From Eledone cirrhosa (Eukaryota): DNA of 64,000 nt. A program made the position numbers and the translations under genes. Shown here piece after piece: positions 1,083-60,512 of this stretch. Every line of letters starts with the position of its first letter. The stretch's first letter is position 1. The notes under the pieces are model-generated. The model did not search any database. It had not been told where the DNA came from and saw nothing but the letters and a program-made list of their open reading frames with translations. The DNA lies in the NCBI GenBank assembly GCA_964016885.1, contig OZ024744.1:72106001-72170000 (forward strand), in the 5' to 3' direction.

Positions 1083-2175
1083 CAGTTGTACATCTACGTA
1101 TGCCAATATCAATACTTCTGCATCTGAAAATGAACTTATTCATCTGCATATACGAATATACACACGTTTAATTACGAAACTGTGTACAGTATACGTACAT
1201 TAGCATATCGGCATATTTATATTTAATCGATACAGAAATTAATTTGGATCTTTATTTTATCCCTTAGTTATAGTCGATGAGCAGTAGCTTTGAACATTTT
1301 ACTTCCCCCACAAACTGCTGACAAGTTAGTTTGTGTTAAATTTACACATCAGCTGGTTAGTAAGGAATCTCCGCTTTTATTTATAATGAATATGTGAAAA
1401 GAAACTAGGGGTTGACGTCCGAAGAAAATGTGTAATGATTGTGTCACTTTGGGGATTGTCTATATAGCACTAAAGTGATGCCTACGTACGACAGAATGAA
1501 GTAGATTAAGCTAGTCTATCATCACTATGGGAGTGTATATTTAGATGTGACAGCAACTATGTCGATAATTTACAGAGAATTGTGGGACAGAGAATGTATC
1601 TTCTGCGTATTCTGCAATCAAATATATTCCTACCCAATATATAAGAGAGAGTACAAGACTCAAGCCATCAGACAATGCTTACATTGGTTTCATTTATACC
1701 AAAATATTAATGAATTCATCCAACTCATTGGATAAAGTCACCTCTGGTCACCCCTGTTTAATTTCAGTTATCGTGTGAACCTCGCCTATGGTTTATACAT
1801 AATTAAAAATACAATAACTTAGTTTAAGATTAGCTAATAGCATAGAGAGAGTGTTATCTTTTCATCATTCTATTTTTTCTGTCTGCATCTTCCTTTTCAT
1901 TTCCGCCTCCAACATATTTGCCAGTGGCTCTATGGGGATCTTGAATTCATATGTTCGTGAGGGTATTTTTTTCCACATTGTGCGTGGGAGGTGGGGATAT
2001 AAGGATATGTTAAAAACCACGTAGTATCTAATGCATCCTTATGCGGTGAATCAACTACAGAGATTGAGAGAGAGAGAAAGAGGGAGAGAGAGAGAGAGAG
2101 AGAGAGAGTAGAAGAGTGTTATATCCACCAGAATTAGAAATTTACACAAAGAAAAGAAATAGATTAATAACAATT

Positions 2176-2353
2176 GTTTCTACTTTTGACACAAGGCCAG
2201 CAATTATCCCAGTGTATTACTGGTACTTTATTTTATCGACCCCGTAAGGATGAAAGGCAAAGTTAACCTCGGCGGGATTTGAACTCAGACAATAAAGGGC
2301 CGTAACTCTTTTCTGCAAAGCATGGCGACAGACTCTCTACAGATACTGCCAAT
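2176..2353 (-). mobile_element. tRNA-derived SINE (family A)
   Basis: Minus strand: A-box-like TGGCAGTATC, B-box GAGTTCAAATCC, 3' end ggccttgtgtcaaaagtagaaac plus ATT tail; about 10 copies in the window. Confidence 0.85.
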
Positions 2354-3336: not shown

Positions 3337-3375
3337 CTATTATGTTCCCCCTTATTGTATTGTATTGTAATAATT

Positions 3376-3550
3376 GTTTCTACTTTAGGCACAAGGCCAG
3401 CAATTAACCAGTACATTACTGGTACTTTATTTTATCGACCCCGTAAGGATGAAAGGCAAAGTTAACCTCGGCGGGATTTGAACTCAGACTGTAAAGGGAC
3501 GTAACTATCCTAGAAAGCATGGCGTCCAACCCTCTACCGATACTGCCAAT

Positions 3551-3554
<4 letters not shown>
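3376..3554 (-). mobile_element. tRNA-derived SINE (family A)
   Basis: Same consensus as 2176-2353; the tail abuts taataat. Confidence 0.85.
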
Positions 3555-9511: not shown

Positions 9512-9513
<2 letters not shown>

Positions 9514-12500
9514 TTTCATTTATTAGCCACAAGGGCCGACATGTAGGGGACAATACAAAGACAGGGACAGTGGGGGTTTACAATAAGGTCGAGTGCACAA
9601 TGGCAAGACTAATTTAACAATGGAAATATAAAAATATAAAATAAACAATGCATAAATATAACAAAATAAATTCCCCTATAGGGGGTGGACGACCCAGGGG
9701 TGACTCAGGTACCCCACCAATCCTGAACCACCCTGCGCTTCTAGGGCACCCAGGGAGAGCACCCTTCTCCTCAAGTTAGCTAGCCTATAGGCGCATAGTC
9801 AGAGTAGGCCCATTCACACGGGCCATTCTCGCCACATTCATCCACCTTTTAGCAAATGTAGTGGGGGGCAGCACTTCTCTCTCCACCCTCACCTTCCTTT
9901 CCAGGTGAAGTTTAAAGAAGTTGATGAGGGATTGGCCGAAGAGAAAAGTGTCTGTCTTCAGTCCTTTTAATCTGGTCCACCATATAACCTCTTTCGCAAC
10001 GGCCACCAGACAGAGGAAAATTGCCTGCTCTTCCTGACCTAAGGAAGGCGGCGGGTCGATCTTCACTATGGACTCGGCCGATAACCGGATCCGTTCTACA
10101 CGCGACATTAGCTGTTCGACATAACTCCACAAGTCAGTAATGCACGGACATTGGACAAGTGCGTGCAGAACGGTTTCGTCGCTCTGTGCGCATTTTGGGC
10201 AGGTCCGTCTGACAGCACTTCCGTGCCTGTATAGTTTATCCCGAACCGGCAGTGTCCCCCGGTAGCACTGCCAAGCGAGGGATTTCTGGAAATTATCCAT
10301 CGTCCCCGGCTCGAAAGTCCTCCGGTACATACTGGTCAGTTCGACTTCGTCGAGGCCCAAAGTTTCTCCGAGTGCGTCATCGCACTTGCAAACCACTAAT
10401 CCTATATAAAACGCTTGGTAGAGGGAAGTGAGTGCCTGGCAAAATTCCAGGTGCCAATCACCCAGTCTCGGTCTCTTCTTCACCCAGGACTGCAGCTCAT
10501 CAAAGAAACGAGCTACAGAAAGGCCCGTCTGATAAACGGCGACCACGCCTGTTCACCGTTTAGGCAGAATATCTGGTGATGTCGCAGCTTCAGCGCATGT
10601 CTGCGAATCATTAACCACGGCATTCCAATCCCTCCGCGTAGAGGGTGCTGGCAGCAGATGGACCGCCTCACCAACGGAACTTGTCCTTTCCACAAGAATA
10701 TGAAGAAGAGCCGTTCCAACTTGACGAGGCGCGGACGGAGTCAAGGCACGACGGTCAGGCGGTAGTAGATGAGCAACTTTATCGGTCCGTCCGTCCAGCG
10801 CCTAACGACGCTGTTGGACGGCATAAGTTTGCCTCTCCAGGTTCCAAGCTACAAGCCCACCGACTTTTCCGGGTTAAGTTTGGCTCCTGTCAACCTTTCA
10901 TATTCCTTCAATAAGGTGCCGACCACCTCGATTTCTGAGGTGTTCGACACCAGCTCGGTGATGTCATCCGCATAAGCCGACACCGCCTTTCCAGTCCCGG
11001 TTCGAGTGGGATGCCCTGCAACAGCTCCAGCTTCCGCAGTAAAAGCTCGAGAGTCAATACGTACAGAAGGGAAGAGAGAGGGCACCCTTGACGAACCTAT
11101 TGAGAGAGCCGAAATGGTTCCTAGAGGTGGCCATTAACCTTGACCACCGAGAGTGTGCCGCTGTGCATTGCAGCGATGAAGTTTCTGAAGACAGGGCCGA
11201 AGCCAGTTGCTTTGAGATCAAACTCCAGATACCGATGGTCGACCCTATCGAATGCTTTCGATTGATCTAAATTGATCAGTGCCCCATCGAAGCCAGGTTT
11301 ACACCCTACCCTCACTATGATGTATCGCATGAGGTGGAGATTGTCGTGTATGGACCTGGCTAGGATTGCACAAGTTTGCGCCTCCCCAACCAAATCCTCG
11401 ACGACAAACGCCAATCTCTTTGCTAACACCTTGGCCAAAATCTTATACTCTGTGTTGAGCAGTGTTATGGGCCTGAAGTTGTCTAATGTATCCCTCTTGT
11501 TCTCGTCTTTCCTTATCAGCGTCCCCACTCCCCAGCTCACAGAACTGGGAATACTTCCATTCTGTTGCCAGTTGCAGTAGAGTGTTTCGAGGAGATCGGA
11601 GAACAAGTCTGACATATTTACATAAAGCTCATAGGGCAGGCCATCCAAACCGGGTGACTTGCGCCTCATGCAGCCGACAAGGGGGTCCTGAATTTCGGCT
11701 GAAGTAATCGGCCTTTCGCAGCGCTCAGCGTCGACCGTCGAGATGCGCGGCAGGCCGTCAAGGTAGGGACTGAAATCCGCTACTCTCTCTGACTCGCCAC
11801 TCTCCCCGAACAACCGAGCAAAGTGCTGGCGAAAGGCCTCACACATCCGCTTGGAATCGCTTATCTCGTGTCCGTCTCGGTCCGCCAACGACTGAATTGT
11901 GGCTTTATTACCTGCTGTGCCTCCGCCACGCGGGCCCATCGAACAGCTTTGGATCCCTCGTTTTCAACGCACGCGCCTTCGTGTTTGGCATTGAAGAAAT
12001 GGTCTAATGCCATTCTCGCCGCTAGCACGTCAGTTGCAAGGCCACTACAATTAGCCTCGTCTAACTTATCTACCAGCTCCCCCTCCTTTCTATTTTTCTC
12101 TAACGCTAGTTCTTTGCTGAACCCTATCGAAGGTACTCTAATCTCTCTTTTAAGAGCCCCACCCCACCCCCACCATCTGTTGTTGATGATCCATCCTGTC
12201 AACGTTTGCTTAACTAAATTTTTGACTCGGTCCCTGTAAGCCTTACGTGCCGGAAATGACATGTTCAGCTTCCAGTAACCCGGTCCCAACCTACGCGTTT
12301 TATCTAGGTCGACTCAACAGATCACAAATTTGTGATCTGAATAGGCGACCGTTTTCAAAACTGGGCAGCCTACACTATTTCTATCTATTTTCCTAATGAA
12401 GATTCTGTCTATATACGATCTAGATGGCCCTATGCGGTTGGTCCACGTCCACACTGGTGCATTGGGGAAATCTAGTCGATACCTGTCAGACAGTTAGAAC

Positions 12501-14814
12501 AGGCTGATTAGGTGGTTGAGGCTTTTGCACACCCGCTCCTATCAGCTACTCCCACACAATCCCAGCGTGCGTTTAAGATGCCGTTCCAGTCTCCCACTAA
12601 CCCAGAAAGGTTTCCAGGCGCCTAAAGAATTCGGTCGTCCGGCCCCAGTAGGGGCGTAGACAGTCAGCAGTCTAAAGGCACCACCTTCGCTACTGCTCAC
12701 ATCCAGGACCACCAACTTACCGTCCGGGTCCCGAAGATCGACCTTACCTCGAGATCCAGACCTTTCCTAAACAGCACTGCCACCCCACCTCCCATTCCCG
12801 GCCTGCTAACAGATGCGAAGATCTGATAGTCGTCGAAAATGGGAGCTAGTGCGCGCGTGTCGGAAATCCTGGTCTCGCTGACGGCAATCACATCCATTTC
12901 CATAGACCTGAGGTCGTTGAGCAGGCGACCCTGCTTCCAAGGTGACACCAAGCCGTGAACATTTAAACTTCCTACTCTTAATATGGCCATGTTGGCAAGC
13001 TAAAAGAGAGAGGGAAGGTTTACTTACCTCCCGGGGTCTTGTGAAGGTCGGGTGGTTCGACCTCCATGGTTGGTGGGGTTTCTTTTGGGAACCCCTTTAA
13101 AAGTCTTGATGTGGGTTTCACATTCGGGGTTCCCACGTCTTGAGGAAAGCTCTCTCGAATTTCTTTGTAGGAATTGAGCGACATTCGCACCAGAAGCAAA
13201 TCTTCTGGCACGCAAATGTGTTCAGTTCAAAGATCTCCCCCTCTGTTTGGATGTCCTCGCTTCGTGTTAAGAGGACCATCAATTTATCGTTGGGCCTTCT
13301 GACAAGCACGAAGTTTTTAATGTTTTGTTCGTGTGGTTTTATTTGTTTTCGTTTTGGTGACTGCGGTGGTGATGGTTTTGGTGGTGTTGTTTCGGGTATG
13401 TCTGTGTTTGTTGTAGGTGTGGTGTCTGCAATTTCAGGTGTCTGTGTGTTTATTTGTTCTTGTGTTTCTTTAGATTGTTTGCGTTTCGGGGATTGTGGTG
13501 TTGTTGATGTTGGTGTTGATGTTATTGGGGAAGTGTTTGCGTTAGTGGTGTCTGTATTTTTTGTTGTGTATGTGTTTGTGTTTTGTTGGGGCTTTTTTTT
13601 GGGGGGGGGGGGGGGTTTTCTCTATTGTTTTTTGGCACTTTTGGCTTTTCCTTCATCTTCACTGCTGGAAGACAAAGGGTCTGTATCTGTGTGTGCATTT
13701 ATTGTTTTGCCTATGTGTATAATTGGAGTGGTAAGGGGAGTGGGAGAGTTTTCCTCGTTTTCCCCTTGGGTCGGTTTCGTTGCTGGTGGTGGTCCGACGG
13801 TTTTTTATGTTGATGGGGTTACCCGTGTCATTGTTGGTGTTGTTTTTGGTGGTGGTGGTGGTGGTACAGCTTTCCGTGCTGACACTAGTGTTGGCAACAA
13901 AGGAGGTTTGCGACTCCCTGACTTTTTGAACTGAGGGCAGAAGCTTGCAGATGCATTGCTTCCCCGCAGACGAAGCAGTGCGGCCTTATTACCTCAGCGA
14001 TTAATTGGATTGTTGTCCCGTCCTGCAGGCGGCCAACATCCAGTATGTTGTTCATGTCCTCTGGTTTCATTTGGAGAGGAATCTCCAAATTCATTCTGGA
14101 CCAGTCTTCTCTCTCTGTCGTTTTGATATCCAGGAGGGTAGTGTCTGTCCCCTCCTCGATTACGTATCCCAGGACCCACCATATGTTCATTCCTGGTGGG
14201 ATCCTGGGAATGCGGACCTTTACTGTCCTTTTGCCCATGTAGGACGGGAGTATGATAATGCGTTCCGTTCTGCAGGGGGTCACCTGCGTCAATTTCTGCG
14301 TCAGTGGTGTTCGGCGTGGAAGAGTCGATTCTGGGTGAATCCATTTCGATGTCACGAGATAATAATTTTTTTTTTGTTTCTGTTGTCGGTGTGGTGGGGG
14401 GTGGCGGCTTAACACCTGCAGTTTTTGGTAATGGCGGGAAATGATTGTTTGCATGTGACAAATTTAAATTATTGCCACTGCTTATATTTTTAGTGTTGGC
14501 AAACATAGTAATGTCTACAATGGTGGTGTTGGTGGTGGTGGTGGGAGGTGTTGGTTTGTTAGGATGGCTGTCAGCTTTGTGTGGCTGAGTGCCGTCCATG
14601 TTTTCTCAAAGAAAGTTTTTTGTTTGATAATTATAAAAGTTTTAATTTTTGGGCTCAAGGCCCCAATATTATTTACTGTCCTTTTCAGAAAGCAATATAT
14701 GTGAACTTATAACCACTTAACAACAAAAATGTTCCATAACTGGCAATTTGAAACAACTGAAAACAACAAACCTTTGCGGAGCTCACGATAATACGATTTC
14801 CTCCGTAGGTCGCC
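9512..14814 (-). mobile_element. Apparently full-length but disrupted Tx1/L1-clade LINE (ORF1 with zinc knuckle, ORF2 APE + RT + C-terminal Zn finger)
   Basis: ORF1 fragments at 14599-13885 (CFVCGEAMH); APE N-terminus MAILRVGSLNVHGL at 12990; RT motifs KSPGLDGLPYE, FRPITLLN..YKILAK, LDQSKAFDRVDH, AYADD; CPKC...H..C at 10546-9785; AATAAA near the 3' end; (AAT)n on both sides. Confidence 0.9.
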
Positions 14815-14857
14815 AATAATAATAATAATAGTAATAATAATAATAATAATAATAATA

Positions 14858-16256
14858 GAGTCATTGTGATGAGGAGGGGTAGGTTGAGCAGAAGTAACGG
14901 GATCCAGATACCAACAGGTGAGATGATAAAGGAAATTGACTCTGAGGAAGGATACAAGTATTTGGGCGTTCTGGAGGCTGATGGCATAAAGAACAAAAAA
15001 ATGAAGGAATTGTTAAGAACTGAATACATTCGGAGAGTAAGGAGCGTATTGAAGTCACATCTGAACAGCAGAAATGCCATAAGCGCAGTAAATTCCCGAG
15101 CTGTGTCTATTATTAGGTACAGTGCGGGAATTCTGAGATGGAATGTTGCTGAACAAAAAGAAATGGATAGGAAGACTAGGAAGCTATTGACTATCTACAA
15201 CATGTTCCACAAGAGGAGTGATGTCGATAGACTCTACCTAAGGAGATCTGAGGGTGGAAGAGGTCTTATCAGCATAGAGGACTGTGTTCAGATGGAGAAA
15301 AACAACCTATACAAATACGTGACCTATAGTAAGGAGCCAATGCTCAGAGCTGTACTGAAGGAGGGGACAGTAGGCCAGGGGATACCCAAGGAGGAAATAA
15401 CATCAAGGAGGAAGAGCAGCCTTAAGGGAAAATCCCTTCATAGTACCTTCTTTGAGAAAACTGAATTTAGAGATCCACAGACATGGAACTGGTTGAGAAG
15501 GGGAGACCTCAAAAAGGCTACAGAAGGAATGCTAATGGCTGCGCAGGAGCAGGCCCTCAAAACGAAGTGGTTGAAGCACCATATCTACAAGGAGGAGGCT
15601 AGCCCACTGTGCAGGATCTGTGGAGAGAGAGAGGAGACTGTGGCTCACATTGTGTCCGAGTGTAAACACCTAGCCCAGACCCACTATAAGGGCTGGAGAC
15701 ACGATGTGATAGGCAGGGTGATCCACTGGCACCTGTGCAAAGTAAACAATCTACCACATTCTGAGAAATGGTATGAGCATAGGCCAGAGGCGGTGATGGA
15801 GAACAGTCAGGTGAAGGTGCTGTGGGATTTTAGGATACAGACGGACAAAAAACTGGAACACAATAGACCTGACCTGGTGGTTGTGAACAAAGAAAAAAGA
15901 TCGTGCCTGATTGTGGATGTGGCCTGCCCGTTCGACACGAGAGTGCAAGAGAAGGAGAGGGAGAAAATTAACCGATACCAGGACCTAAAGTGGGAGGTGA
16001 AAAGGATTTGGAACTGCCATGAAGTCAAAGTGATCCCGATTGTCATAGGCGCACTGGGGACTATCTCCAAAGGTTTCCAGGGATGGTTAAAGAAAATCGG
16101 CCCCTTCACGCTTTTTGGAACGCTTCAAAAGGCATGCTTGCTTGGAACGGCAAGAACCCTCCGATACGTCCTGAATATCTGAGGCTGCAGGTAGTGGCTT
16201 GATATTCAATCCAACGGACTTTCCAGTTAACCAACATCAATGACTGAGATTCAAGG
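14858..16256 (+). mobile_element. 5'-truncated R4/Dong-clade non-LTR retrotransposon (RT C-terminus, CCHC, RLE endonuclease)
   Basis: ORF 14866-16182 with CRICGEREETVAHIVSEC, RHD, RPDLVV...IVDVACPFD; (AAT)n on both sides (14815-14857, 16257-16339). Confidence 0.92.
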
Positions 16257-17736: not shown

Positions 17737-20700
17737 ATGTGACAGACTTCACCCAACAGGTGCCCCCTGGCTCAGCAGCAGGAACCTGACTGTCAACCAA
17801 ATACTGCTGATGTTGGAGGAAGAAGAAGAAGGAAAGGGGCCAGAACCAACTGGACGAAAGAATTGAATAGAACTGTTATGCAATGCTACCTGAAAAGTAA
17901 CCCCAAGGAGAGGGGCTACAGGAGACGGATGCATAACATCTGGAACGAGATTGGTCTATTTAAATTAGATGAACAAAAATTGGCCGGGCAGGCTCGGGTA
18001 ATAAGAACTAATGGGTGGATAAGCGAGCTGGAACTGGAGGAACTGAGCAGAGAGAATGGCTTGGAGATGGCGGGTGTAGTATGCCAGACAAGCGAGCCGG
18101 CGGGAAATGAAGGTGAGGAGGTCCTGAGAACGGAGGAACCACCCGAAGCAGACAATGATCTGAATACTGAGATAAATAATACCTGGAACAGAGATACGGC
18201 CACTGAGGAGATGAATGCTGACGGGCTAGGACAAGATTCGGTTGACATCCTAAATTTAGTGGTAGATGAGTTGAACAATGATAGTGGGAGACCTATGAAC
18301 CTAAGATTTGTAGACAGGAAAAAGTTAAAAGAAACAACAGCTAAGGTAAACAAAGTCATCCCATACCTTGAGGCGAGGAGTCTTCACCAGTGCAACAATA
18401 TCCTCAAAGCAACAGCAAATACGGTGAGGAAACTACTTGGTATAAAAGCGAGAGGAAACAACAGACAAGAAAGAGCAGAGCCGTGGTGGAAGAAGCGACT
18501 GAGTGGGCAAATCGGGGAAATGAGAAATGACATAGGAAAGCTTGAGTCACTACTGAATGGGACACTAAAAAACATAGGCACTAAAAATAGACTGGAAATA
18601 AAATACAAAACTAGGAGTAAAAAGCTAAATATTATCATAGAGGAATTGAAGCAACGCATTGTAGCAAAGAGTGCCAAAATCAGGCGGTACGAGAACAGAG
18701 TCAGTCAGTATAAACAGAACCGCATGTTCGACAACAACCAGAAGATGCTGTTTGGACAGCTTGAGGGGAAAGAAAGAGGCAACGACTTGATCCCTGGGGC
18801 GGAACAAGCTAAAACATTCTGGAGAGGAATATGGGAGCAGGATGTTAGACACAATGCCCAGGCAGGGTGGATTGAGACAGTACAGAGGGAGATCGGTGAG
18901 CAGGCACAACAACAGACTGATTTGAGTATCACAGTTGAAACTCTTAAGGGGCAAGCCAAAAAACTAACCAACTGGAAATCACCAGGCCCAGATGGTGTGC
19001 AGGGGTATTGGATTAAACATTTAACATCCCTCCACCCGAAGCTGACGGCCATGTTCAATGACTGCTTGGTGTCGGGTGAGGTGCCAGAGTGGTTGACAAA
19101 AGGTACCACAGTTCTGATAATGAAAGACCGAATCAAGGGTAATGATGTTACCAACTATAGACCTATCACATGTCTGCCCGTAATGTGGAAACTGTTGACG
19201 AGCATTGTGTCTGAGGAAATCTACCATCACCTCCACACAAACAACTTGTTGCCGGACGAACAGAAAGGATGCCGAAAGAAGTCACGTGGTACAAAGGACC
19301 AGTTGCTTATTGATAAGATGGTAATGGGGAATTGCAGGAGGAGACACACTGATCTTGCCATGGGATGGATAGACTACAGAAAGGCATTTGACATGGTGCC
19401 TCATTCCTGGATCACCAAAAGCCTGGAGATCTTCAGGGTGGCAGATAACATCAGACAGTTGCTGGGCAGGAGTATGGGGTCCTGGGAGACAGAGTTGACA
19501 TCAACTGGAGTATCCTTGGGAAGCGTGAAGATCAAGAGAGGTATCTTCCAGGGAGATAGCCTGTCCCCTCTGTTGTTTGTCCTTGCCCTGATGCCCTTGA
19601 CCATTATGCTGCGAAAAGTGAGAGCAGGATACAAGTTGGGAAGGGGAGAGCTTACCATCAATCACCTCCTCTTCATGGACGATCTTAAGCTCTTCGGGAA
19701 AAGTGAGAAGGAGTTGGATGTGCTTGTTGACACTGTCCGTATTTTCAGCAGTGATATATGTATGCAGTTTGGTATTGGTAAATGTGGAGTCATTGTGATG
19801 AGGAGGGGTAGGTTGAGCAGAAGTAACGGGATCCAGATACCAACAGGTGAGATGATAAAGGAAATTGACTCTGAGGAAGGATACAAGTATTTGGGCGTTC
19901 TGGAGGCTGATGGCATAAAGAACAAAAAAATGAAGGAATTGTTAAGAACTGAATACATTCGGAGAGTAAGGAGCGTATTGAAGTCACATCTGAACAGCAG
20001 AAATGCCATAAGCGCAGTAAATTCCCGAGCTGTGTCTATTATTAGGTACAGTGCGGGAATTCTGAGATGGAATGTTGCTGAACAAAAAGAAATGGATAGG
20101 AAGACTAGGAAGCTATTGACTATCTACAACATGTTCCACAAGAGGAGTGATGTCGATAGACTCTACCTGAGGAGATCTGAGGGTGGAAGAGAGGTCTTAT
20201 CAGCATAGAGGACTGTGTTCAGATGGAGAAAAACAACCTATACAAATACGTGACCTATAGTAAGGAGCCAATGCTCAGAGCTGTACTGAAGGAGGGGACA
20301 GTAGGCCAGGGGATATCCAAGGAGGAAATAACATCAAGGAGGAAGAGCAGCCTTAAGGGAAAATCCCTTCATAGTACCTTCTTTGAGAAAACTGAATTTA
20401 GAGATCCACAGACATGGAACTGGTTGAGAAGAGGAGACCTCAAAAAGGCTACAGAAGGAATGCTAATGGCTGCGCAGGAGCAGGCCCTCAAAACGAAGTG
20501 GTTGAAGCACCATATCTACAAGGAGGAGGCTAGCCCACTGTGCAGGATCTGTGGAGAGAGAGAGGAGACTGTGGCTCACATTGTGTCCGAGTGTAAACAC
20601 CTAGCCCAGACCCACTATAAGGGCTGGAGACACGATGTGATGGGCAGGGTGATCCACTGGCACCTGTGCAAAGTAAACAATCTACCACATTCTGAGAAAT

Positions 20701-21187
20701 GGTATGAGCATAGGCCAGAGGCGGTGATGGAGAACAGTCAGGTGAAGGTGCTGTGGGATTTTAGGATACAGACGGACAAAAAACTGGAACACAATAGACC
20801 TGACCTGGTGGTTGTGGACAAAGAAAAAAGATCGTGCCTGATTGTGGATGTGGCCTGCCCGTTCGACACGAGAGTGCAAGAGAAGGAGAGGGAGAAAATT
20901 AACCGATACCAGGACCTAAAGTGGGAGATGAAAAGGATTTGGAACTGCCATGAAGTCAAAGTGATCCCGATTGTCATAGGCGCACTGGGGACTATCTCCA
21001 AAGGTTTCCAGGGATGGTTAAAGAAAATCGGCCCCTTCACGCTTTTTGGAACGCTTCAAAAGGCATGCTTGCTTGGAACGGCAAGAACCCTCCGATACGT
21101 CCTGAATATCTGAGGCTGCAGGTAGTGGCTTGATATTCAATCCAACGGACTTTCCAGTTAACCAACATCAATGACTGAGATTCAAGG
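17737..21187 (+). mobile_element. Near full-length R4/Dong-clade retrotransposon, single ORF split by a 2-bp insertion
   Basis: N-terminal WTKELN..MQCY...RRMHNIW...EQKLAGQARVI, RT (KSPGPDG, YRPITCL, GIFQGDSLSPLLF, LFMDD), CCHC, RLE; ggaagaGAggtc at about 20191 versus ggaagaggtc in the other copies; (AAT)n tail 21188-21215; exact 5' end unresolved. Confidence 0.92.
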
Positions 21188-21215: not shown

Positions 21216-21607
21216 AGACCTGACCTGGTGGTTTTCGACTAGGAAAAAAGATCGTGCCTGATTGTGGATGTGGCCTGCCCATTCGACACGAGAGTGCAAG
21301 AGAAGGAGAGGGAGAAAATTAACCGATACCAGGACTTAAAGTGGGAGTTAAAAAGGATTTGGAACTGCCATGAAGTCAAAGTGGTCCCGATTGTCATAGG
21401 CGCACTAGGTACTATCTCAAAAAGTTTCCAGGGATGGTTAAAGAAAATTGGCCCCGCCACGCTTTTTGGAACGCTTCAAGAGGCATGCTTGCTGGGAACA
21501 GCAAGAACCCTCCGATACGTCCTGAATATCTGAGGCTGCAGGTAGTGGCTTGATATTCAATTCAACAAACTTTCCAGTTAAATAACATCAATGTCTGAGA
21601 CTCAAAG
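21216..21607 (+). mobile_element. Short 3' fragment of a sister R4/Dong subfamily
   Basis: ORF 21264-21533 DVACPFD...RYVLNI with diagnostic substitutions; own (AAT)n tail 21608-21636. Confidence 0.9.
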
Positions 21608-22429
21608 AACAATAATAATAATAATAATAATAATAAATCACTCACTATCTGTCAAATATATGTTCATAGAAACACGCCATCTTATCTAACTAATGTCGTG
21701 CCTGAGTATTTCTAAGAAGCTTATCAGGATTTTAATCTAGGAGAGATATAGATAGTTGGAACGAGAGAGAGAGAGGGAGCGGGGGAGAGAGAAAGAAAGA
21801 AAGAAAGATGGACAAAATGAAAGAATGAGAGAGCAATGGGGGTTGGATGAGAGACATGGGCCGGCTGGAAAAGAAAACCAGGAAGCCAGAGATTTTCCAA
21901 TAATAAGTTTATCTTTTTTCGTTACTCTACCACTAACGTGGTTCATACAATTTCGAGTGAACCTGTTCGTGAATAATCACATTATCACCATTAATGAATA
22001 TATAAATAAATGCGCTGCATCCAGATTGCTAGGCTACATCCTGATAGCTAGAAATAACTTCATATTAGAAAATTTAAGTGCAAATATTTGAAACGTGTGT
22101 CTTTCAGATACGGCGATGTCAATGGTCGAGTGTGTGGGCTAGTGTCCCGCCTATGGAACCACAGTTCATGTCTTGTGGTATAAACATTGTATCTTGTTCC
22201 TGGCGAACAGCATTAAACGTGACTCCCAACGTCTGTGTTTGCGTAGCTCTGTATTAAAGTTAGCGATATACAGGAACAGTAGGGACTTTGACGTCTTACA
22301 ATGTTCAGTTCAATTCCGTCTGCAGTAGAAGACTTCTAAAACAATAGCCAACAATTCTGGCATTTGAAAATAGAGCTAGTAGGGCAGAACATCCAGACCG
22401 ATTGATTTATGCCTCGTTGTATTCCTCAC

Positions 22430-22594
22430 TTCATCTAACAATATCAGTTCTTTGTTGTACACTGCCTCCGTGTTCGAAAGTTGTGACAGTCCGGCGAGTT
22501 GGGCATCAAAATCAACTCCATTGTCTCCAGTTCGTTGCTCCTCGCAAAAGGTTCCACAAAATGCAGTTAGAAAAAGAACAATAGTAAATAGCAT
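22430..22594 (-). CDS. Candidate first coding exon of a secreted protein (signal peptide plus 38 aa)
   Basis: ATG at 22594, MLFTIVLFLTAFCGTFC hydrophobic leader, 55 codons ending GAA|GTGAGG (phase-0 donor-like); unique, non-repetitive sequence. Confidence 0.4.
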
Positions 22595-22940
22595 TGACTT
22601 TTTCACCCACAAAATACTATAGTTTAGTACCACTCTGGATAGTTATACACAGGGAATGATTACATATCAGCTCCCATACCTTTCTCGCACATTGATACAG
22701 TGTTACGTATGAGCGAGGAAATAATTATAGTCGATTTCATCGAGTCTGTTACATGAGAGGTATTTATTTTGATACTGTCGTGTTAATAAATCTCAAAATA
22801 AACAGATGATAATTGTTCTCTAACAGTTTTTGTTAAACAACCTAAATATAAAGATCTAGTTATATAAATCACCAGAATGTAAAACCTGAATACGCTAGTA
22901 ATCCTTATAATATTATGTCTTGAGAATGATTAAAAATAAT

Positions 22941-23152
22941 GGTTTCTTATATAGCCACAAGGCCAGCAATTTTGGGGGAGGGGAAAGTCGATTAAATCGA
23001 CCCCAGTGCATGACCGTTACTGTATTTTATCGACCCCGTAAGGATGAAAGGCAAAGTTAACCTCGACGGGATTTGAACTCAGAATGGCAAGGGCCGTAAC
23101 TCAATGCGTCAAAGCATGGCGTCCGACCCTCTACCGATACTGCCAATCCACC
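22941..23152 (-). mobile_element. tRNA-derived SINE (family A, longer variant)
   Basis: A/B boxes present; 3' end ggccttgtggctatataagaaacc plus attatt. Confidence 0.85.
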
Positions 23153-23396
23153 TAAATAATGCAAACAAATGCATAACCAAAGCGCCAAGACTTATTCATA
23201 TTTAAAAAAATACAAAATATATCTACTAGGCATTGTACACTTATCCGTAGAATACATTTAATACAATAGCAAATACAAAATAAATCATATATTGAAGATA
23301 TCTTAAGCATTCAGTGGAATTTGTCCCTTCCACAAGAAACGAAAAAGTATGCTTTTGAAGCTTCGTGTTTAAGCATGCTCATACTAGCTGTTTTCC

Positions 23397-25561: not shown

Positions 25562-25591
<30 letters not shown>

Positions 25592-25599
<8 letters not shown>

Positions 25600-25940
25600 A
25601 TACTTTGGGAGGGTCATGTTGCCAATAAGAAACACACGCACCAGTTGCTTTCACTTCAATTTATTATATATTTATAAATTTATAAATTTACAATCACTGA
25701 AGAGGTCACAGAGTGTGTGACGAAAGGACTATGACTATATATAAACAACTATCTGTGAAACCAGAAATTTATAAGTTTGTAAATTTGTAAATTTATAAAT
25801 TTATAAATATATAATAAATTGAAGTGAAAGCAACTGGTGCGTGTGTTTCTTATTGGCAACATGACCCTCCCAAAGTATAACAATATCGGTTTCAACACAC
25901 GATTTCAGATAAAGAATCTTGCTAAAGAAATTCAGAAACG

Positions 25941-25943
<3 letters not shown>
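25592..25943 (+). mobile_element. Hammerhead-bearing fold-back element (family B) between (TA)n tracts
   Basis: About 100-bp inverted arms 25592-25693 / 25785-25886; same family as 47224-47790 and 60285-60510. Confidence 0.75.
25694..25735 (+). ncRNA. Minimal type I hammerhead (family B)
   Basis: tca CTGAAGA g GTCACA gagtg TGTGAC GAAA gga CTA tga. Confidence 0.65.
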
Positions 25944-26006
<63 letters not shown>

Positions 26007-26234
26007 GTGTATATGTGTATGTATTTTTTCTCGCGAGGCAGTTCTTTCGTTGCTACAGACCACGCGGCTGAATTACCGATCGCTATCTTCAATTTGCAAA
26101 AGACCTTTATTTAAACTGTATGTTATTACTCTGAGGTTTATACCTTGTCGATTGGTTGGCTACACCGTTGGCTTAGCTGCGGCTTGAGTTTCGAATATGC
26201 TGTACTTTCATTTGTATATATATATATATATATA

Positions 26235-29200
26235 TAATACAATCAATACAATAAAAATACAAAAATACCCCCAAAAAACAGGAAGATATCCTAGGCGCGC
26301 AGTGGAACTTATTCCTTCCACAAGAAATGAAAGACTGCACTTCCTCTACGCATTCTGTGGTCTCGGTGGAAGAAAAGTAAAGGACAATAATAAGTGAGTG
26401 CAGAGTGGTTTCATCGTTATCCGCATATTTCGGACAAGGCTGACTGACACCACCTGTACTTGTAAAGTGTATGTCGAATTTGCACTGCTCTCCTATAACA
26501 CTGCCAGGCCAGGGATTTCTGGAAATTGCCCTTAATCTCCGGTCCGAAACTCTTCCAAAACAGGCTAGTCAGTTCAATCTGGTCGATGCTTAAATTTTCC
26601 CCAAAACGCAGTCGGTCTTGCTCAGCACTAGTCCTCCGTAGAATGCTAACGTGGGATTTTCTCAGATCACTTTGATAGAGAAGTCTGAACGCCTGACAAC
26701 ATTCCAGCTGCCAGCTGCCTAGTCTCGGTCACAGTTCCATTCTGTGTATCATAGCCCCAGAATGCCAAGTCCTCCGCGCACATGACAAGTGAAACCTGCC
26801 CTCTGCACAAAAAGTGAAAAGCACACGATCCAATCTGGCGTGGCGAGCTGGAACAAGGCCCGGCGCATTCCAAGTAATATATAGCTAAAGTCATACATGC
26901 GTTCGCCACATTTGCCCGACATTCCAGGGATAGCTTTTTCTCGGCTTAACTCTGGGTTAGACAGATTATCCTGTCCGTTATCTAGCCACAGTTCTTATCC
27001 ACGTGGTGGTCCAGACCAAACCAGATCATGAACGCGTCAGATGCGATGCCACACCAAAGCTCATCTAGTTTAACTCCTAACCCTCTCTTTGCAATATGTT
27101 TTTTTCTATTGTTACTTCTTTGTAAAAACTATTGATCCTAATCGATCTAGCTGATCCGCTGTGACTATTCCATGTTCACACAGGTGTATTCGATACCTGC
27201 CAGCTAGTTGAAACCGTCTGATCAGGTTTTGAAGCGTTTGTTTCCCCTTCTTCTATCAGCTATACCCACACAATTCCTTTTTGCATCCAAGATGCTGCTC
27301 CAATCCTAAGCCAAGAGTAAGAAAGGCTTTCAGACGCCTGAAGAAATCTGGTCATCCTTCTGCAGGACATTGATGGCCACCGGTCTGAAAGCATCACCTT
27401 CGTTATCATTACATCCAAGACCACCAACTCATGGAAGATCGTCTTCACCTCGAGATCCAGGTTTTTATGCAGAAGTAATTTAAAATTCAGTACGAACAAC
27501 AGGGATGAGAGGGGACAATCTTGATAGACCACGCGCATAATGTAAGAAGTAACATTTCACTATGATCACTGAATAAATGTCGTTGTGCATAACAGCGATC
27601 CAGGCCCTGAAAACGGGTCCATAACCCGGCTGCCCTGAAGATTGCTGCCAGGTATGGATAGTTAACCTTATCGAAAGTTTTCGTATGTCAAATCTGATCA
27701 GGACCTCATCCGTGCCAGGTTCCTTGGCCACCCATATCGCATAAGGTGGAATTTGTCGTGGTTGGATTTTTTCAGAATGGCGAATGTCTGCGCGTCCCCT
27801 ACCAGACCACTGAAAACAAATGCTAGCCTCGGAGATAAAATCTTATGCAAAATTTTGGAATCTGCATTTAGTAGAATTATAGGCTTGAAATTAACGATAT
27901 CGTCCACCTAGTTCGGATCCTTTCTATGCACTTCCACTGCTCCACAGCTCACAGTTGCAGTAGATGTTACCCAAGAGAAAATAGAACAAGTCTAGCATAT
28001 AGATGTAGAACTCGTATGGCAGACCATCTGAACCAGGCGATTTACACTTCGTGCAGCTGGTCATCACCTGTATTTTAGCAGTCCACCAAAGTAGGCACTA
28101 TAGTCCATCCCTTGATCCATCCCACCACCACTCCTGGAGAGTTGAGCGATGAGCTGTTGAAAAGCCGCACACATCCGCTTAGGATCGAGTAACATGCGCT
28201 CGTCATGGTCCACCAATGACCGGATTGTGATTTGTTGCCACACCACGCAACCACCACTTGGACCGATTCAACGGCTATCATCGCTTCATGAGGACGCACC
28301 CTAGCACTGTCAACGTAGCCTTCGTGTTTTACATTGTAAAACGGCTCTAGTGCCAATTTCGCTGCGAGCATGCCCGTCGCGATGACTTTTCTAAATGCCT
28401 TTTCTAGTTTCCTGACTAGTTCTCCCTCTAATCTATTTCTTTTTAGAGCTAGTGCCTTGCCAAACCTTATCGAATGTACTCTAATCGCCCTTTAGATTGT
28501 GGACAACTATTTTTGGTTAGCGATTGCCCCCATCAACTCCCGCTTAACTATTTCACTTATTCGGCTCTCGCAGTTTGCACACCGAACAGAACCCCTATAG
28601 TTTTCAGTAACCGGGTACTTATCTATGATTAGGTTGATTACACAGATCGACTACTTTAATTTGTGGACCACCTATGCTAGCCTTATCTACTTCCCTACAG
28701 ATACGATCTGGATGATCCGATGCGGTTTGACCAGGTTCACGCTGGCACATTCGAGAAATCCAGTCGGTGCCGCTCAGACGTTTGGAATTGTCTGAGCAGG
28801 TCTATGAGGCTTTTGCATCTGTCCTCTAACCTCACATAATCCTAGCGTCCAACTAAGATCCTAATCCCGTCGCCCACTAACACTAATAAAAGGTTTCCAG
28901 ACGTTTAAAGAATTTTGGTCGTCTTTCACATGTCAGTGCATAGACGACAACTAACCTGAAAGCATCTAACCAGTGCCACCAAGTTACATTTCGGATCAAT
29001 GACGTTGATCCGTATCATGAGATCTAGGTCGTTCCGAAACAACACAGGGACTCTGGCTCCTGATCCCTTACGACTTGGAGATGCGAACAGCACATAGTCG
29101 CCAAAATCGGGTGCGATGTTTCGGTGATGACTACTACATCTAAATTCATTAGCGTAAAGTCGTTGAGCAAGTGACCCTGCTTCCAAGGTGCTCCAGACCG

Positions 29201-33150: not shown

Positions 33151-33360
33151 AAGGCGCACTAGGCACTATCTCAAAAAGTTTCCAAAGATGGTTAAAGAAA
33201 ATTGGTCCCACCCCGCTTTTTGGAACACTTCAAAAGGCATGCTTGCTGGGAACAGCAAGAACCCTCCGATACGTTCTGAATATCTGAGGCTGCAGGTAGT
33301 GGCTTGATATTCATTTCAACAAACTTTCCAGTTAAATAACATCAATGACTGAGACTCAAA

Positions 33361-33361
<1 letters not shown>
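33151..33361 (+). mobile_element. R4/Dong 3' terminal fragment (sister subfamily)
   Basis: Matches 21400-21607; (AAT)n tail 33362-33401. Confidence 0.85.
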
Positions 33362-33401
<40 letters not shown>

Positions 33402-36210: not shown

Positions 36211-39010
36211 GTTTTCTTTATTAACCACAAGGGTTTACATAAAGTAGACATTAAGGACAGTACAGGACAATACAGGACGGTACAAATGGGCATTTCTGCG
36301 TGTAAAAAAAAACAGAGGATGAAATAAAATAACAAAGAAAAATTCCCCAATAGGGGGGAGAATTCCGAGGGACATTTGTGGAGAAAGCCCATTAAAAGAC
36401 CACAGTGGCCCTGACCACCAGGGCAAGTGCCCTTTCCCAGTTTTCCACCTTTAATTTACAGACACATACTCAGAGAAGGCCCATTCATTCGGGCCATACT
36501 TGCTTCTCTCACCCATCTTTCAACAAAATGCTGGGAAGAGAGCACTTCCCTCTCTACCCTGATTTTCCTTTTCAAATGAAATTTGAAAAAGTTAATCAGG
36601 GCATCACCGAAGAGGTAAGTGCTCGTCTTCAGCCCTTTCAAACGTGTCCACCATACTATCTCTTTCGCCATGGCCACCAGACAGATAAAAACTGCCTGCC
36701 CTTCCCGGCTAAAGGAAGGGGCGGGGAAATCCTCACGATGGACTCAGCTGATAGCTGGATCCGTTCTACACGTGACAGCAGGTGTTCGACATAAACCCAC
36801 AAGTCAGCAATGCTCGGACACTGGACGAGTGCGTGCAGGACGGTTTCGTCGCCCTGCGCGCATCTCGGACATGCCCGGCTGACGGCACCTCCATGCCTGT
36901 AGAGTTTATCCCGAACTGGCAAGGCTCCTCGGTAGCACTGCCAGGCCAGGGATTTCTGGAAGTTGTCCATAGGCCCCGGCCCGAAAGTCCTTCCGAAGAG
37001 ATTGGCTAGTTGATTTTCGTCGACGCCTAGAGTTTCTCCAAGTACGTCGTCGCTCTTCCCCTCCACTAATCCCCTATAGAACGCCAAGGTGGAGTTTCCA
37101 CCGATCACATTGCCCGATTGGTCGAGGGCTGTGAGCGCCTGAAGACATTCCATTCTCCAAGCGCTCCCTCTCGGTCTTCGCTTGACCCAGGACTGCAGCT
37201 CCGTCAAGGAGACGAGCTGGGGAAAAACGTGTCTAGCAAACGGCGACCACACCTGATCACCGTCGAGGAAGAGGTGGAGATGTCGTAGCCTGAGCGCGTG
37301 TCTGCGCATCATCAGCCACGGCATGCCCAGCCCTCCACGTAGCGAGTGTTGACAGCAGATGGACCGCCTGACCATCGGAGCGCGTCCCTTCCACAAGAAG
37401 CGAAAGAGCAAACGCTCCAGCGCAGTCAGGCGGGGCTTAGGACAAGGTACGACGGTCAGGCGGTAGTAGATGACGGACGCGATGTACGCGTTAGCCACCT
37501 CCGCTCGACCTTTAAGGGATAGCTTCCTCTCGGCCCATTTCTGGGTGAGAGAAGCCACCCTGCTCGTCACCTCGTCCCAGTTTTTGTCCGTCTGGAGGTC
37601 TGGACCGAACCAGACCCCTAGCAATTTAACCGGTCCGTCTGTCCAGCGCCCGACGACGCTGCTGGACGGCATGGACCTGCCACTCCAGGTGCCGAGCTGC
37701 AGGCCCACTGACTTTTCCTGGTTGATCATTGCTCCTGTCACTGCTTCGTATTCTCTTAGTGTAGTGCCGATCGCCTCGATATGTTTGGCGTTCGACACCA
37801 CTACGGTGACATCGTCCGCATATGCTGACACGGATCTTCCGCATCCTAGTTCGCGCGGGATCCCCCTCAACGTCTCCAGTTTGTGCAGTAATGGCTCGAG
37901 AGTCAATACGTACAATAGGGATGAGAGGGGACATCCTTGGCGGACCGAGCGCATGATGTTGAACGGTTCCGAAAGTGACCGTTCACTCTCACTACAGAGC
38001 AGATGTTGCTGTGCATGGCAGCGATCCAGCCTCTGAAGACGGGCCCAAAGCCAGCCGCCCTCAGGACTGCATCTAGGTAACGATGGTCGACCCTATCGAA
38101 GGCTTTCGACTGATCTAAATTGATCAAAGACCCACCCGTGCCAGGTTCCCTAGCTACCCTCTCTACGATGTATCGCATGAGGTGGAGGTTGTCGTGGATG
38201 GATCTGTCGGGAATGGCGCATGTCTGTGCCTCTCCCACCAGACCACCAACGACAAGCGCCAACCTCTTTGCTAGCACCTTGGCCAAAATCTTGAACTCTG
38301 TGTTTAGCAGAGTTATGGGCCTAAAATTATGTATGTTATCCCCCTTGTTCGGATCCTTTCTCAGCAGCGCCACCGCTCCTCGGCTCACAGAGCTGGGAAT
38401 TCTCCCGTTCTGTTGCCAGTTGCAGTAGACGTCCGCCAAGAGGCCTCCGAACAAGTTTGGCATTTGTACGTAAAGTTCATAGGGCAGACCATCCAAACCA
38501 GGCGAGTTACCCCTTGTGCATCTAGTCATTGCATCCCGTACTTCAGCGGTTGTTATCGGCTTTTCGCAACACTACGCCTCAGTGGCCGAAAGCCGCGGCA
38601 GTCCGTCGAGGTAGACACTAAAGTCCATCCCTCGATCCGGCCCGCCACTTCCCCCGAACAGTTGAGCGAAGTGTCGCTGAAAAGCTTCACACATTTGCCC
38701 GGGATCGAGTAGCATGCGCCCGTCGTGGTCCACCAAAGACCGGATCGTGGCTTTGTTGCCATGACGCGCCTCCGCCACTCGGGCCCATTGAACGGTTTTG
38801 TCCCCTCGTGTCTGAGAGCACGCACCCTAGCTCTGACAACGCAGCCTTCGTGCTTTGCATTGAAGAATTGGTCAAGAGCTAATTTCGCCGCAAGTACGTC
38901 GGTCGCGATGCCTTTGCTAAGCGCCGCATCTAATTTTCTAACTAGTTCCCCCTCTGCTTTATTTTTCTCTATTGCTAAAGTCTTACTAAACCTAATGGAC
39001 TCTATTCTAA
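36211..39010 (-). mobile_element. 5'-truncated Tx1/L1-clade LINE (RT plus C-terminus)
   Basis: ORFs 38529-37903 and 37954-36656 (SVRQGCPLS, AYADD, CPRC...H..C); (AAT)n at 36157-36210 and 39011-39033. Confidence 0.9.
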
Positions 39011-39035
39011 AATAATAATAATAATAATAATAATT

Positions 39036-39348
39036 GTTTATACTTTAGGCACAAGGCCAGCAATTACCCAGTGCATTACTGGTACTTTATTTTATAGACC
39101 TCGTAAGGATGAAAGGCAAAGTCAACAATAATAATAATAATTGTTTCCACTTTTGGCACAAGGCCAGCAATTACCCAGTGCATTACAGGTACTTTATTTT
39201 ATCGACCCTGTAAGGATGATGGGTAAAGTTTACTCAGGGGGATTTGAACTCAGAATAGCAAGGGCCGTAACTCTATGCGTCAAAGCTCTGCGTCCGACCC
39301 TCCTCCGATACTACCAATCCACCGCCAATAATAATAATAATAATAATA

Positions 39349-39404: not shown

Positions 39405-39790
39405 ATTACGAAACATACTAAAGAAGAAATAAAACGAAAACCATCCCACGACAAATACCCCACAAAGAAAGTTCAACCGAAATGTAAACCAAAGAGAAAT
39501 TCAACAATGGCTCAAAAGCTTCAGTCTGAAACCAGATATGAGTGGACTTATTTTCTCTGCAAAATATCAAGGGTCTGATCACAAATAATTAGAAGAACAA
39601 AATAATTGTTTCTACTTTTGGCAGAAGGCCAGCAATTAACCAATGCATTACTGGTACTTTATTTTATCGATCCCGTAAATATGAAAGGCAAAGTTAACCT
39701 CAGCGGGATTTAAACTCAGAATTTAAAGGTCCATAACCCTATGCCACTTAGCATGTTGTCCGCCGCTCAACCGCTTCTGCTAATCCACCG
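39036..39790 (-). mobile_element. Three family-A SINE copies (39036-39125, 39143-39326, 39607-39790) separated by (AAT)n/(GAT)n and a small plus-strand R4 remnant (about 39402-39600)
   Basis: SINE consensus recurs three times; the remnant reads KPSHDKYP like the 32.2-kb element. Confidence 0.8.
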
Positions 39791-43551: not shown

Positions 43552-43559
43552 TAATAATT

Positions 43560-43700
43560 GTTTCTACTTTTGGCACATGGCCAGCAATTATCCCAGTGTA
43601 TTACTGGTACTTTATTTTATCGACCCTGTAAGGATGATGAAAGACAAAGTTAACCTCGGCAAGATTTGAAATCAGACTGTAAAGGGACACTCTACGGATG
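43560..43700 (-). mobile_element. tRNA-derived SINE (family A), partial
   Basis: 3' consensus; its ATT tail is the Chapaev3 insertion site. Confidence 0.75.
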
Positions 43701-58451: not shown

Positions 58452-59298
58452 GGTGGATTGACAGTATCGGTAGAGGGTCAGACATGCCTTCCAGCATAGT
58501 TACGTCCCTTTACGATCTGAGTTCAAATCCTGCCGAGGTTGACTTTGCCTTTTATCCTTACAGGGTCGATAAAATAAAGTACCAGTAATGCACTGGGTAA
58601 TTGCTGGCCTTGTGCCAAAAGTAGAAACAATTATCTTATACACCATGCTTTGACGCATAGAGTTACGGCCCTTGCCATTCTGAGTTCAAATCCCGCCGAG
58701 GTTAACTTTGCCTTTCATCCTTACGGGGTCGATAAATTAAAGTACCAGTAATGTACTGGGTAATTGCTGGCCTTGTGCCAAAAGTAGAAATAATTTTCAT
58801 ATACTACAGTACGTAATTAGTACTCTCGATGATTTTGACGACTCAGTCGTATCTTAGAATGTATGGCCTTGTGTCATCGTAACAAATCATTTTTATCATC
58901 ATCAACATCATCATCACCGTGGTAGTTGTTGTTGTCGTCGTCGTCGTCATCGCCATCATCATTACTATTATTATTAGCAGTATCTTTAAAACCGAAGCAC
59001 ATATGCTATATTTTGTTCCTGTTCAAATCACACCGAAGTTAACTTTGCCTTTCATTTTCCAGAGTTGAAAAAATGAAGTACCATCAACTACTGAGGTAAC
59101 TTTAATTGACATTACCCCTCCTAGAAACTGCTGGCATTGTGCCTGAATTAGGGTGGATTGGCAGTATCAGTGGGGACACCATGTTTTGATCTGAGTTCAA
59201 ATCCCGCCGAGGTTAACTTTGCCTTACGGGGTCGATAAAATAAAGTACCAGTAATGCACTGGGATAATATCTGGCCTTGTACCAAAAGTAGACACAAT
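58452..59298 (+). mobile_element. Cluster of family-A SINEs (58452-58628, 58643-58792, degenerate about 59020-59150, 59150-59298)
   Basis: ggtggattg.cagtatc head, gagttcaaatcc B box, ggccttgtgccaaaagtagaaac plus attatt end. Confidence 0.82.
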
Positions 59299-60284
59299 TA
59301 TTATTGATAATAGCATTTGCTAGTCTTATTTTTGTTGGTTGATTTCACTGCACAAATAAAGGTAGCTCTGTTTCTCTTGTATATAAGGAAGCATTATGCA
59401 TTGTTTTGGGATTTTTATATTGTGTCTATAATAAATAAGATATATAAGCAAATAAACGAAAATAGAAGAGGGAATAAATGGTCCAAAAGCAAGGCTGTAT
59501 TTTCCCACCTCAATGTAAACGAGGAGATAGGGTTCACTTGTTCCAAAGCCGAATAATTCAAATTTTTCATCAAGTAAAACGTAGTAATATTCCAATTCCA
59601 AACAGCTACAACCACAGCAACAGTGGCAACAGCAATAACAACAGCGCCAGTGAGAGAAGCCGCAACAATAAGAACTAAAACAACAATTTCTGTTCTAAGA
59701 ACTACATTATAAGAAGAAATTACAAAAATGATGGAGCTTTACATAGAATTAAATATGCGAAAACAAGCATGAAAAGTAATAGAATATAAGGAAATGAAAG
59801 GTCTTGATAGATATACAGACACTTGAGGCCAATCAAGGGACTTTATAGATCTCAGATTATCCTTACTACAAAGGATACTTCCTCCGACTACCTAGCTATG
59901 TCATCCAATATTCAGGCGCATGCTGAGACTCAGTCCATTTAAGCATTAACGCCATTTCTGTTACTATCACGCATCTTTCGGTGGATTAAACAGCAGGGCA
60001 ACAGTTCCGTTTCACTCACTTATTCTTTCCCTAGTGACACATGAAAACGTTGTTGAGGAAAATATCTGTTTTCGGCACTTGCAGTCAGGCCTGTCGTATG
60101 ACCATTTTCACTACAGCTACTCTAGAGAGACGATATCCGCAGAGATGCATGCCACCAGAAATTAGTGCAGAGGAGCAGTCACAATCATGTTCTGACCGAG
60201 TCCAGCTTACCAACCTCCAGTATGGTCACTACCAGAAGCTAAGAATCGCACAAGAATAGACTAGACAATAGAATGCTTGCATCA

Positions 60285-60510: not shown

Positions 60511-60512
60511 TA

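Follow-up and report, generated by a model that had tools for sequence, protein, structure and literature searches.

Introduction

The borrowing of a LINE 3' tail by a partner SINE is an established principle, and 58 SINE-LINE pairs have been tabulated, among which three, from plants and algae only, carry L1 tails (Ohshima 2013, PMC3747384; PMC3472496). These comprise LINE1-1_ZM with ZmSINE2/3 in maize and L1-1_CR with SINEX-3_CR in Chlamydomonas (Ohshima 2012, PMC3472496; PMC3747384), and with 3/58 pairs the L1 group is the standing exception to tail sharing (PMC3747384). In crocodilians, SINEU elements were tied to Tx1-Mar by target preference and overlapping ages (Kojima 2015, PMC4494074). 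SINEU combine an snRNA head with a poly(A) tail, no LINE with the 3' terminus of SINEU-1 was found, and the Tx1-type elements Kibi and Koshi and the crocodilian Tx1 families target (TC)n, (TTC)n, (TTCC)n or (TTTC)n (PMC4494074). For UnaL2/UnaSINE and for ZfL2-1/ZfL2-2 it has been shown that ORF2 recognises a 3' stem-loop, in a manner specific for the loop and general for the stem (PMC4176376). Bivalve SINEs pair with CR1, CR1-Zenon, L2 or Nimb (PMC11481361), and the octopus SINEs OR1 and OR2 are CORE SINEs, for which the accessible portions of the reports mention no Tx1 partner (PMC4758252, PMC4824008); the accessible portion of PMC5786205 mentions neither Tx1 nor octopus. In Octopus vulgaris, L1-Tx1, Dong-R4, CR1, RTE and Penelope elements are reported to be recently active (PMC13282606). 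A tail-sharing pair of a SINE and an animal L1/Tx1 element was not found in the literature searched, and repeat-database entries may hold one.

Here, we describe a SINE of Eledone cirrhosa (GCA_964016885.1) and its relation to L1/Tx1-like LINEs. The window, i.e., the whole stretch of 64,000 nucleotides analysed (contig OZ024744.1, positions 72,106,001 to 72,170,000), consists of AT-rich repeat DNA in a genome of 3.0 Gb. With a probability of roughly 0.89, we consider the SINE to be partnered with the ATT-targeting Tx1-like group and likely to be copied in trans by its members, because tail and LINE terminus match co-terminally, target and duplication footprint are the same, ages overlap and no clade examined fits better. 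A probable driver is thereby named for a SINE covering ~2.6% of the sampled genome. If an animal L1/Tx1 lineage with stringent 3' hairpin recognition does drive this SINE of several hundred thousand copies, it would be the first animal element of the L1 group with a SINE partner that shares its tail, and stringent recognition as the ancestral L1 state would gain support. Young, near-intact LINE copies and two sister groups with distinct targets would allow a test of stringency as ancestral in the L1 group, and the two sister lineages would separate RNA capture from target choice.

The Focal SINE and Its Family

The focal element is a long-form SINE that differs by 6.7% from the long-form majority (Table 1). 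ARAGORN found no tRNA gene in the window, only box-like motifs are visible in the SINE head, and Rfam gave no match at E up to 1. The 7-nt repeat at its two sides (within 22932..22940 and at 23154-23160) is a short target duplication, and the (ATT)n of this copy amounts to two units only, followed by T's. Its tail is a minority variant, carried by 7/32 full-length long-form copies, that is by letters more LINE-like than the common tail.

Table 1. Coordinates of the SINE and Tx1-like LINE features in the window.
Feature	Positions	Strand	Remarks
Focal tRNA-type SINE, long form	22941..23152	-	~212 bp; 5' end a few bases short
Pol III A-box-like motif	23134..23145	-	Sequence motif, present in family majority too
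Pol III B-box-like motif	23069..23078	-	Sequence motif, present in family majority too
SINE 3' terminal motif common to Tx1-like LINEs	22941..22964	-	CTTGT loop at 22957-22961
SINE 3' flank, begins ATTATT	22932..22940	-	First 7 nt again at 23154-23160
Short-form SINE	2174..2353	-	Ends approximate
Short-form SINE	3374..3554	-	Ends approximate
LINE T1, L1/Tx1-like, near-full-length, decayed	9512..14814	-	ORF1 and ORF2 remnants
T1 terminal motif	9512..9537	-	CTTGT-loop hairpin (loop 9529-9533), poly(A) signal, GAAA
LINE T2, L1/Tx1-like, young, 5'-truncated	36211..39010	-	RT and zf-RVT; (ATT)n on both sides
T2 terminal motif	36211..36235	-	Loop 36227-36231; outer stem pair A-U vs G-C in T1
Short-form SINE pair chained via ATT runs	39026..39325	-	Directly upstream of T2
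Short-form SINE	39605..39790	-	Ends approximate
5'-truncated short-form SINE	43557..43688	-	Ends approximate
Two tandem short-form SINEs	58452..58792	+	Ends approximate
Older SINE fragment, then short-form SINE	59021..59300	+	Ends approximate

Short-form copies differ by 1.7-10.6% from their own majority (median 5.6%, n=20). In an evenly spaced sample of 790 kb, 153 merged SINE matches, 80 of them tailed, make up 2.6% of the bases, which extrapolates to roughly 300,000 tailed copies genome-wide. The SINE may be Deu/Nin-like. By eye, ~23 nt resemble rows of bivalve MetaSINEs (PMC4824008, supplement). The start GGCG is common to full-length Tx1-ATT elements (14811-14814 in the window) and most SINE copies. 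Five further loci (L369, L374, L355, L350, and L356) have SINE-like tails, several of them preceding ATT, and no detectable body of the focal family; this suggests older SINE families with the same tail.

Tx1-Like LINEs

The three 3' ends quoted in the first-pass annotation were found in place on the minus strand, at 22941 for the SINE, 9512 for T1 and 36211 for T2, each directly followed by ATT. T1 lies between two (ATT)n stretches, 9455-9511 and 14815-14857. Among genome copies, 30/30 T1 loci and 30/30 T2 loci end at the same base, so that these ends are family ends rather than accidents of single copies, and chimeric tails were ruled out for both on this ground. The Tx1-like ORF2 contains the Pfam domains Exo_endo_phos (APE-type endonuclease), RVT_1 and zf-RVT (C-terminal zinc knuckle), and the L1-group hallmark of an ORF1 upstream of ORF2 is present, with long open frames for both in locus L158. 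A PDB search with ORF2 returned L1 ORF2p at E 3e-52 vs R2 proteins at E 1e-21, and ORF2 is nearest to L1 among characterised elements and solved structures; the best named homologue is a protein auto-labelled 'Transposon TX1' with 32% identity. A short stretch of P0011, annotated as neprilysin-1 of an octopus species, is 69% identical to Tx1 ORF2, which is either a gene-model artefact or an exonised fragment.

Clustering of 101 3' ends yielded about a dozen Tx1 families, all of which carry some form of the terminal motif and which split into one set followed by (ATT)n and another followed by (TATC)n. Target preference, a trait common in the Tx1 clade, is visible here, with (ATT)n or (TATC)n bordering the elements on either side; (ATT)n stands directly before the conserved head motif in 10/13 long T2 loci, and none of 89 T1, T2 and T3 ends has poly(A). 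A tree was computed from 15 C-terminal proteins with no named references, 4/15 own rows of <100 residues being left out. The five TATC rows form one clade (99/100), and the six ATT rows fall into two groups with no joint support, which counts against the explanation preferred here. In an even sample of 1.19 Mb, which may lack rare LINE families, Tx1 and RTE rank as the two commonest LINE types with ~42 kb of coding matches each. The Tx1-ATT ends in this sample share 88-99% identity with their nearest neighbours (4/9 measurable), and the age ranges of the SINE and Tx1-ATT overlap on these small numbers.

Distant L1/Tx1 relatives were collected from metagenome contigs (80 loci, 21-53% identity), and in the 26 loci inspected no such motif was seen beside the poly(A)-signal hexamers; this is not taken as absence, since many of the contigs stop before or near the 3' end. 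Further decayed or cut-off Tx1-like copies lie in the window at 26392-31372 (-), which has no recognisable 3' end, 62109-64000 (+) and 22322-22522 (-). A single diverged Tx1 tail with an altered loop (L253, minus strand) precedes ACC repeats, which may be a third type of Tx1 target.

A Shared 3' Terminus

The sharing of the SINE 3' terminus with Tx1-like LINEs, the central claim of the first-pass annotation, is borne out. The last 30 nt of the focal SINE score 28 against both the T1 and the T2 tail (p about 2e-4 each, vs 20,000 random SINE-masked 53-nt windows), and the alignments finish 0-3 nt from both 3' ends. The focal tail matches 11/12 Tx1 tails co-terminally at p<0.01, and the ~25-nt motif is present in some form in each of the 12 Tx1-like tails compared, while none of the five CR1, RTE or R4-like tails compared matches the terminus (p 0.27-0.88). 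For a common short-form copy (58608), the values are p=0.036 with T1, p=0.09 with T2 and 1e-4 to 7e-4 with other Tx1 tails. It counts against the partnership that these matches with T1 and T2 are weak and that the shared stretch is short, ~25 nt, of which 11-18/25 are identical in this copy.

The motif was also said to be conserved between LINEs whose 3' UTRs otherwise diverge, which holds in part. Between T1 and T2, identity is 70% in the last 27 columns of the alignment, compared with 30% in the remaining 3' UTR, and 11 Tx1 tails have a mean identity of 0.70 in these columns vs 0.37 elsewhere. However, part of this LINE-LINE conservation is a poly(A) signal that is absent from the SINE, and T1 and T2 have a second conserved 3' UTR block upstream in common that is likewise absent from the SINE. 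This block lies ~100 nt past the stop codon (near 9675-9695 and 36340-36360 in the window), occurs in most Tx1 families and is self-complementary, with a C-run, a four-base loop and a G-run.

Short AT-rich ends might also resemble each other by chance or convergence, the true partner being unknown or extinct. For this speak the shortness of the motif, the status of the focal copy as the most LINE-like SINE variant, and internal stretches of unrelated LINEs that reach 15-18 bits on a profile of SINE tails. This profile, built from 146/168 SINE tails, was run over 1.5 million SINE-masked windows of the 790-kb even sample; in this unbiased scan Tx1 3' ends, all of the TATC group, take ranks 1, 2, and 4. 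In a held-out 400 kb, 77 matches were obtained, 47 of them with a SINE body, and the remaining 30 comprise 6 Tx1 3' ends, ~5 matches resembling older SINE tails and otherwise internal or unassigned matches, with no recognised 3' end of another LINE among them. Given the co-terminal match in many Tx1 families, the lead of Tx1 ends in the scan, and target and duplication data that independently indicate the same Tx1 group (see below), coincidence is most unlikely. The scan is not entirely favourable to an ATT partner either: the TATC group scores 17-24 bits vs 12-15 bits for the T1 terminus, which counts against it, and in two T2 elements the top match is internal rather than at the 3' end. A recurrent profile match before CT repeats was rejected as a candidate; it lies inside the 3' region of an unrelated LINE with a restriction-like endonuclease.

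A second competing explanation is that the SINE is driven by another LINE clade, CR1/L2, RTE or R4/Dong. SINEs of molluscs usually pair with CR1 and L2 (PMC11481361, PMC4824008), and our sampling covers part of the LINE families of the genome. The tail of a TA-targeting CR1 family resembles the short-form SINE tail (p=0.01), but the CR1 element ends 9-11 nt past the match and is followed by (TA)n in 25/25 cases vs 0/190 SINE ends. A second CR1-like family does end in (ATT)n; its tail, however, is unlike that of the SINE (scores of 8-10), and a duplication starts at its end in 0/13 junctions. R4-like elements occupy the same AAT arrays, yet their tails end in (AAT)n on the other strand and those of RTE in (TGA)n, and neither matches. 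Thus, another clade as the driver is very unlikely, and among the clades examined none is a better candidate than the Tx1-like LINEs.

Insertion Footprint

The first-pass annotation regarded (ATT)n as part of the tail. This has to be revised: the ATT run after the SINE is mostly target site DNA, since the duplications begin at the first ATT. Among 119 SINE ends, 36 exact non-simple duplications were detected, 3 of them long tandem repeats; 34/36 begin at the first ATT, the median length is 16 nt, and C precedes the insertion site in 20/36. Of the full-length copies in the even sample, 17/27 have duplications. Among 298 body-anchored SINEs, 108 tails are unclassifiable, 168 are followed by ATT and 22 by other sequences, mostly ATT variants, and none of the 190 classified ends is in TATC, TA or TGA.

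Tx1-ATT elements leave a similar footprint, with duplications of 15-21 nt that start at or inside the ATT run, at partly unique sites, in 5/74 ends; most of the other ends lie within pure arrays. The ATT motif is found at the 5' junction of 14/22 T1 and 8/10 T2 copies, compared with 0/11 for T3, 2/13 for the ATT-ending CR1 family and a background of 6.7%. A comparison of ages and targets, as proposed with the initial claim, hence finds overlapping ages in small samples and both elements at ATT sites. The footprints differ in degree, with a median of 7 ATT units after LINE ends vs 2 after SINE ends; cleavage of the LINE RNA inside the downstream array is a possible source of the longer arrays.

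In one of these five cases, at locus L167 (minus strand), a 30-nt insertion consists of the Tx1 terminal motif alone and is accompanied by a 15-nt target duplication. A preference of the long form for a T-run after ATTATT (11/23 vs 8/85) was considered as a sign of RNA-target pairing and discarded as a selection artefact because the query extended over 11 flank bases that include the T-run. A T bias among mismatches of the 3' duplicate was rejected likewise, and the held-out sample contained no copy of the T-run long-form subfamily.

Two Sister Groups, One Predicted Hairpin

By exact patterns genome-wide, 12,826 Tx1 tails are followed by ATT and 9,181 by TATC. The SINE tail is followed by ATTATTAT at least tens of thousands of times (50,000 counted, probably a ceiling of the count, some double counts included) and by TATCTATC 82 times, 8 of these without ATT or GTT first; the latter pattern allowed a variable gap and was run with a positive control. 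The TATC group thus has the same hairpin and is nearer to the SINE by letters, yet it almost never places the SINE. It follows that the choice of partner does not depend on the tail alone. The earlier proposal that the tail identifies the driver is therefore retained for the partnership, which is well supported, and not for the motif by itself, which a sister group carries that hardly places the SINE. A second filter must exist, either the loop sequence or base pairing between the end of the RNA and its target.

The motif is predicted to form a stem of 3-4 bp with a five-base loop, the element ending 16-17 nt past the loop, and, in the LINE tails alone, a poly(A) signal lies between hairpin and GAAA end. 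Predicted stem pair probabilities are >=0.8 in 8/11 Tx1 tails. The covariation score of 0.455 for 8 hand-picked tails, which rests on two or three independent events, is reached by 0/500 shuffles and exceeds all slid controls. Both sides of the stem have changed in T2, from G-C to A-U, and in the SINE, from C-G to G-C. A CTTGT loop is found in the SINE and in most tails of the ATT group, whereas the loop varies in the TATC group. In the SINE, the hairpin is predicted to be weak (about -3 kcal/mol); in many short-form copies an alternative fold of -8 to -10 kcal/mol beats it, and in the focal variant the middle pair is broken and a four-base loop is predicted instead. Low substitution rates within SINE tails were set aside, as the copies had been chosen by tail pattern.

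These data allow two readings of how an ATT-targeting Tx1 partner would recognise the SINE RNA. We somewhat favour stringent 3' recognition, as the first-pass annotation had also proposed, and see its probable basis in the hairpin, which would be a reasonable conclusion from the covarying LINE hairpin; the SINE side, with a weak, outcompeted and in the focal copy broken hairpin, lends it less support. Alternatively, recognition may not depend on the hairpin: the short AUU end would pair with the nicked target, while the motif common to both elements would be a relic of a Tx1-derived tail or a 3'-end processing element. The weakness of the SINE hairpin and the spread of a subfamily in which it is broken fit this alternative, as do the failure of the TATC group to place the SINE with the same hairpin and the share of the poly(A) signal in LINE conservation. 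On the other hand, it is at odds with the double-sided stem changes, with the CTTGT loop common to the SINE and most ATT-group tails at a fixed distance from the end, and with the coexisting ATT-ending CR1 family, which keeps its own footprint with no duplications. We regard recognition independent of the hairpin as unlikely, albeit as a reading to be reckoned with.

With hairpin-based recognition as the preferred reading, a mechanism can be proposed as follows. The SINE tail would have come from a Tx1 3' end, with loss of the poly(A) signal, which would be needless for a Pol III transcript. ORF2 would bind the hairpin with the CUUGU loop, and reverse transcription would begin 16-17 nt downstream of the loop. 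At ATTAT sites, the endonuclease would nick the strand reading AAT; as such sites often lie immediately behind the end of another element, chains of elements would arise. The second filter barring the TATC group may be the invariant CUUGU loop or base pairing between a short AUU end of the RNA and the nicked target. Tentatively, and at a little less than even odds, this would amount to a lock of two steps, in which the RNA is first captured through its hairpin, and the ATT lineage is then selected over the TATC lineage by the loop or the AUU-target pairing.

Other Retroelements and Repeats

Several young LINEs with a restriction-like endonuclease, presumably of the R4/Dong clade, are present in the window (14858-16256, ~17743-21187, 21216-21610, 33152-33361, and 33400-36156 (+)). 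Their long copies are ~99% identical among themselves. The elements occupy AAT arrays that they share with Tx1 elements, which they face tail-to-tail or head-to-head. The LINE families seem to partition the microsatellites, with examples at L097, L114, L143, L164, L182, L228, L353, and L371: one CR1 family precedes (TA)n and another CR1-like family (ATT)n, RTE precedes (TGA)n, R4-like elements (AAT)n, another family with a restriction-like endonuclease (ACAT)n, and Tx1 (ATT)n or (TATC)n. (AT)n follows an RTE-like family whose 3' UTR is almost absent. L091 is a tandem array, the short unit of which corresponds to a portion of the 3' region of the ATT-ending CR1-like family.

Nested long inverted repeats, 85-90% alike, occupy 39885-41146 and 41972-42694; a 240-aa ORF beside them has no Pfam match, and they are possibly the remnant of a DNA transposon. 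Local duplications of 100% identity (1-350 = 594-943 and 3588-3831 = 4202-4445) are either recent or assembly-related. A dispersed, unclassified repeat with internal inverted parts occurs at 25568-26014, 47201-47812, and 60289-60579.

Comparison With Known Systems

The LINE spectrum found here resembles the list given for Octopus vulgaris (PMC13282606). As in SINEU/Tx1-Mar, a SINE is tied to a Tx1 group by a shared target and overlapping ages; unlike SINEU, the present SINE has a tRNA-like head, no poly(A), a terminus shared with the LINE and a microsatellite motif as target. Kibi, Koshi and the microsatellite-targeting Tx1 families of crocodilians are likewise Tx1-type elements that insert into specific microsatellites, whereas the present targets are (ATT)n and (TATC)n, and in the available part of the source no partner SINE is named for these elements. 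Compared with UnaL2 and ZfL2, which belong to the L2 clade and were tested experimentally, the present pair is known from sequence alone. Close parallels are the L1 pairs of plants and algae, in which the 3' hairpin of an L1-group LINE, with compensatory changes, is shared with a tRNA SINE, as is probable here. In those pairs 50-80 nt are shared and the hairpins amount to -11 to -18 kcal/mol, whereas the pair described here has an animal host, ~25 nt of shared sequence, a weak predicted hairpin and a target-specific element.
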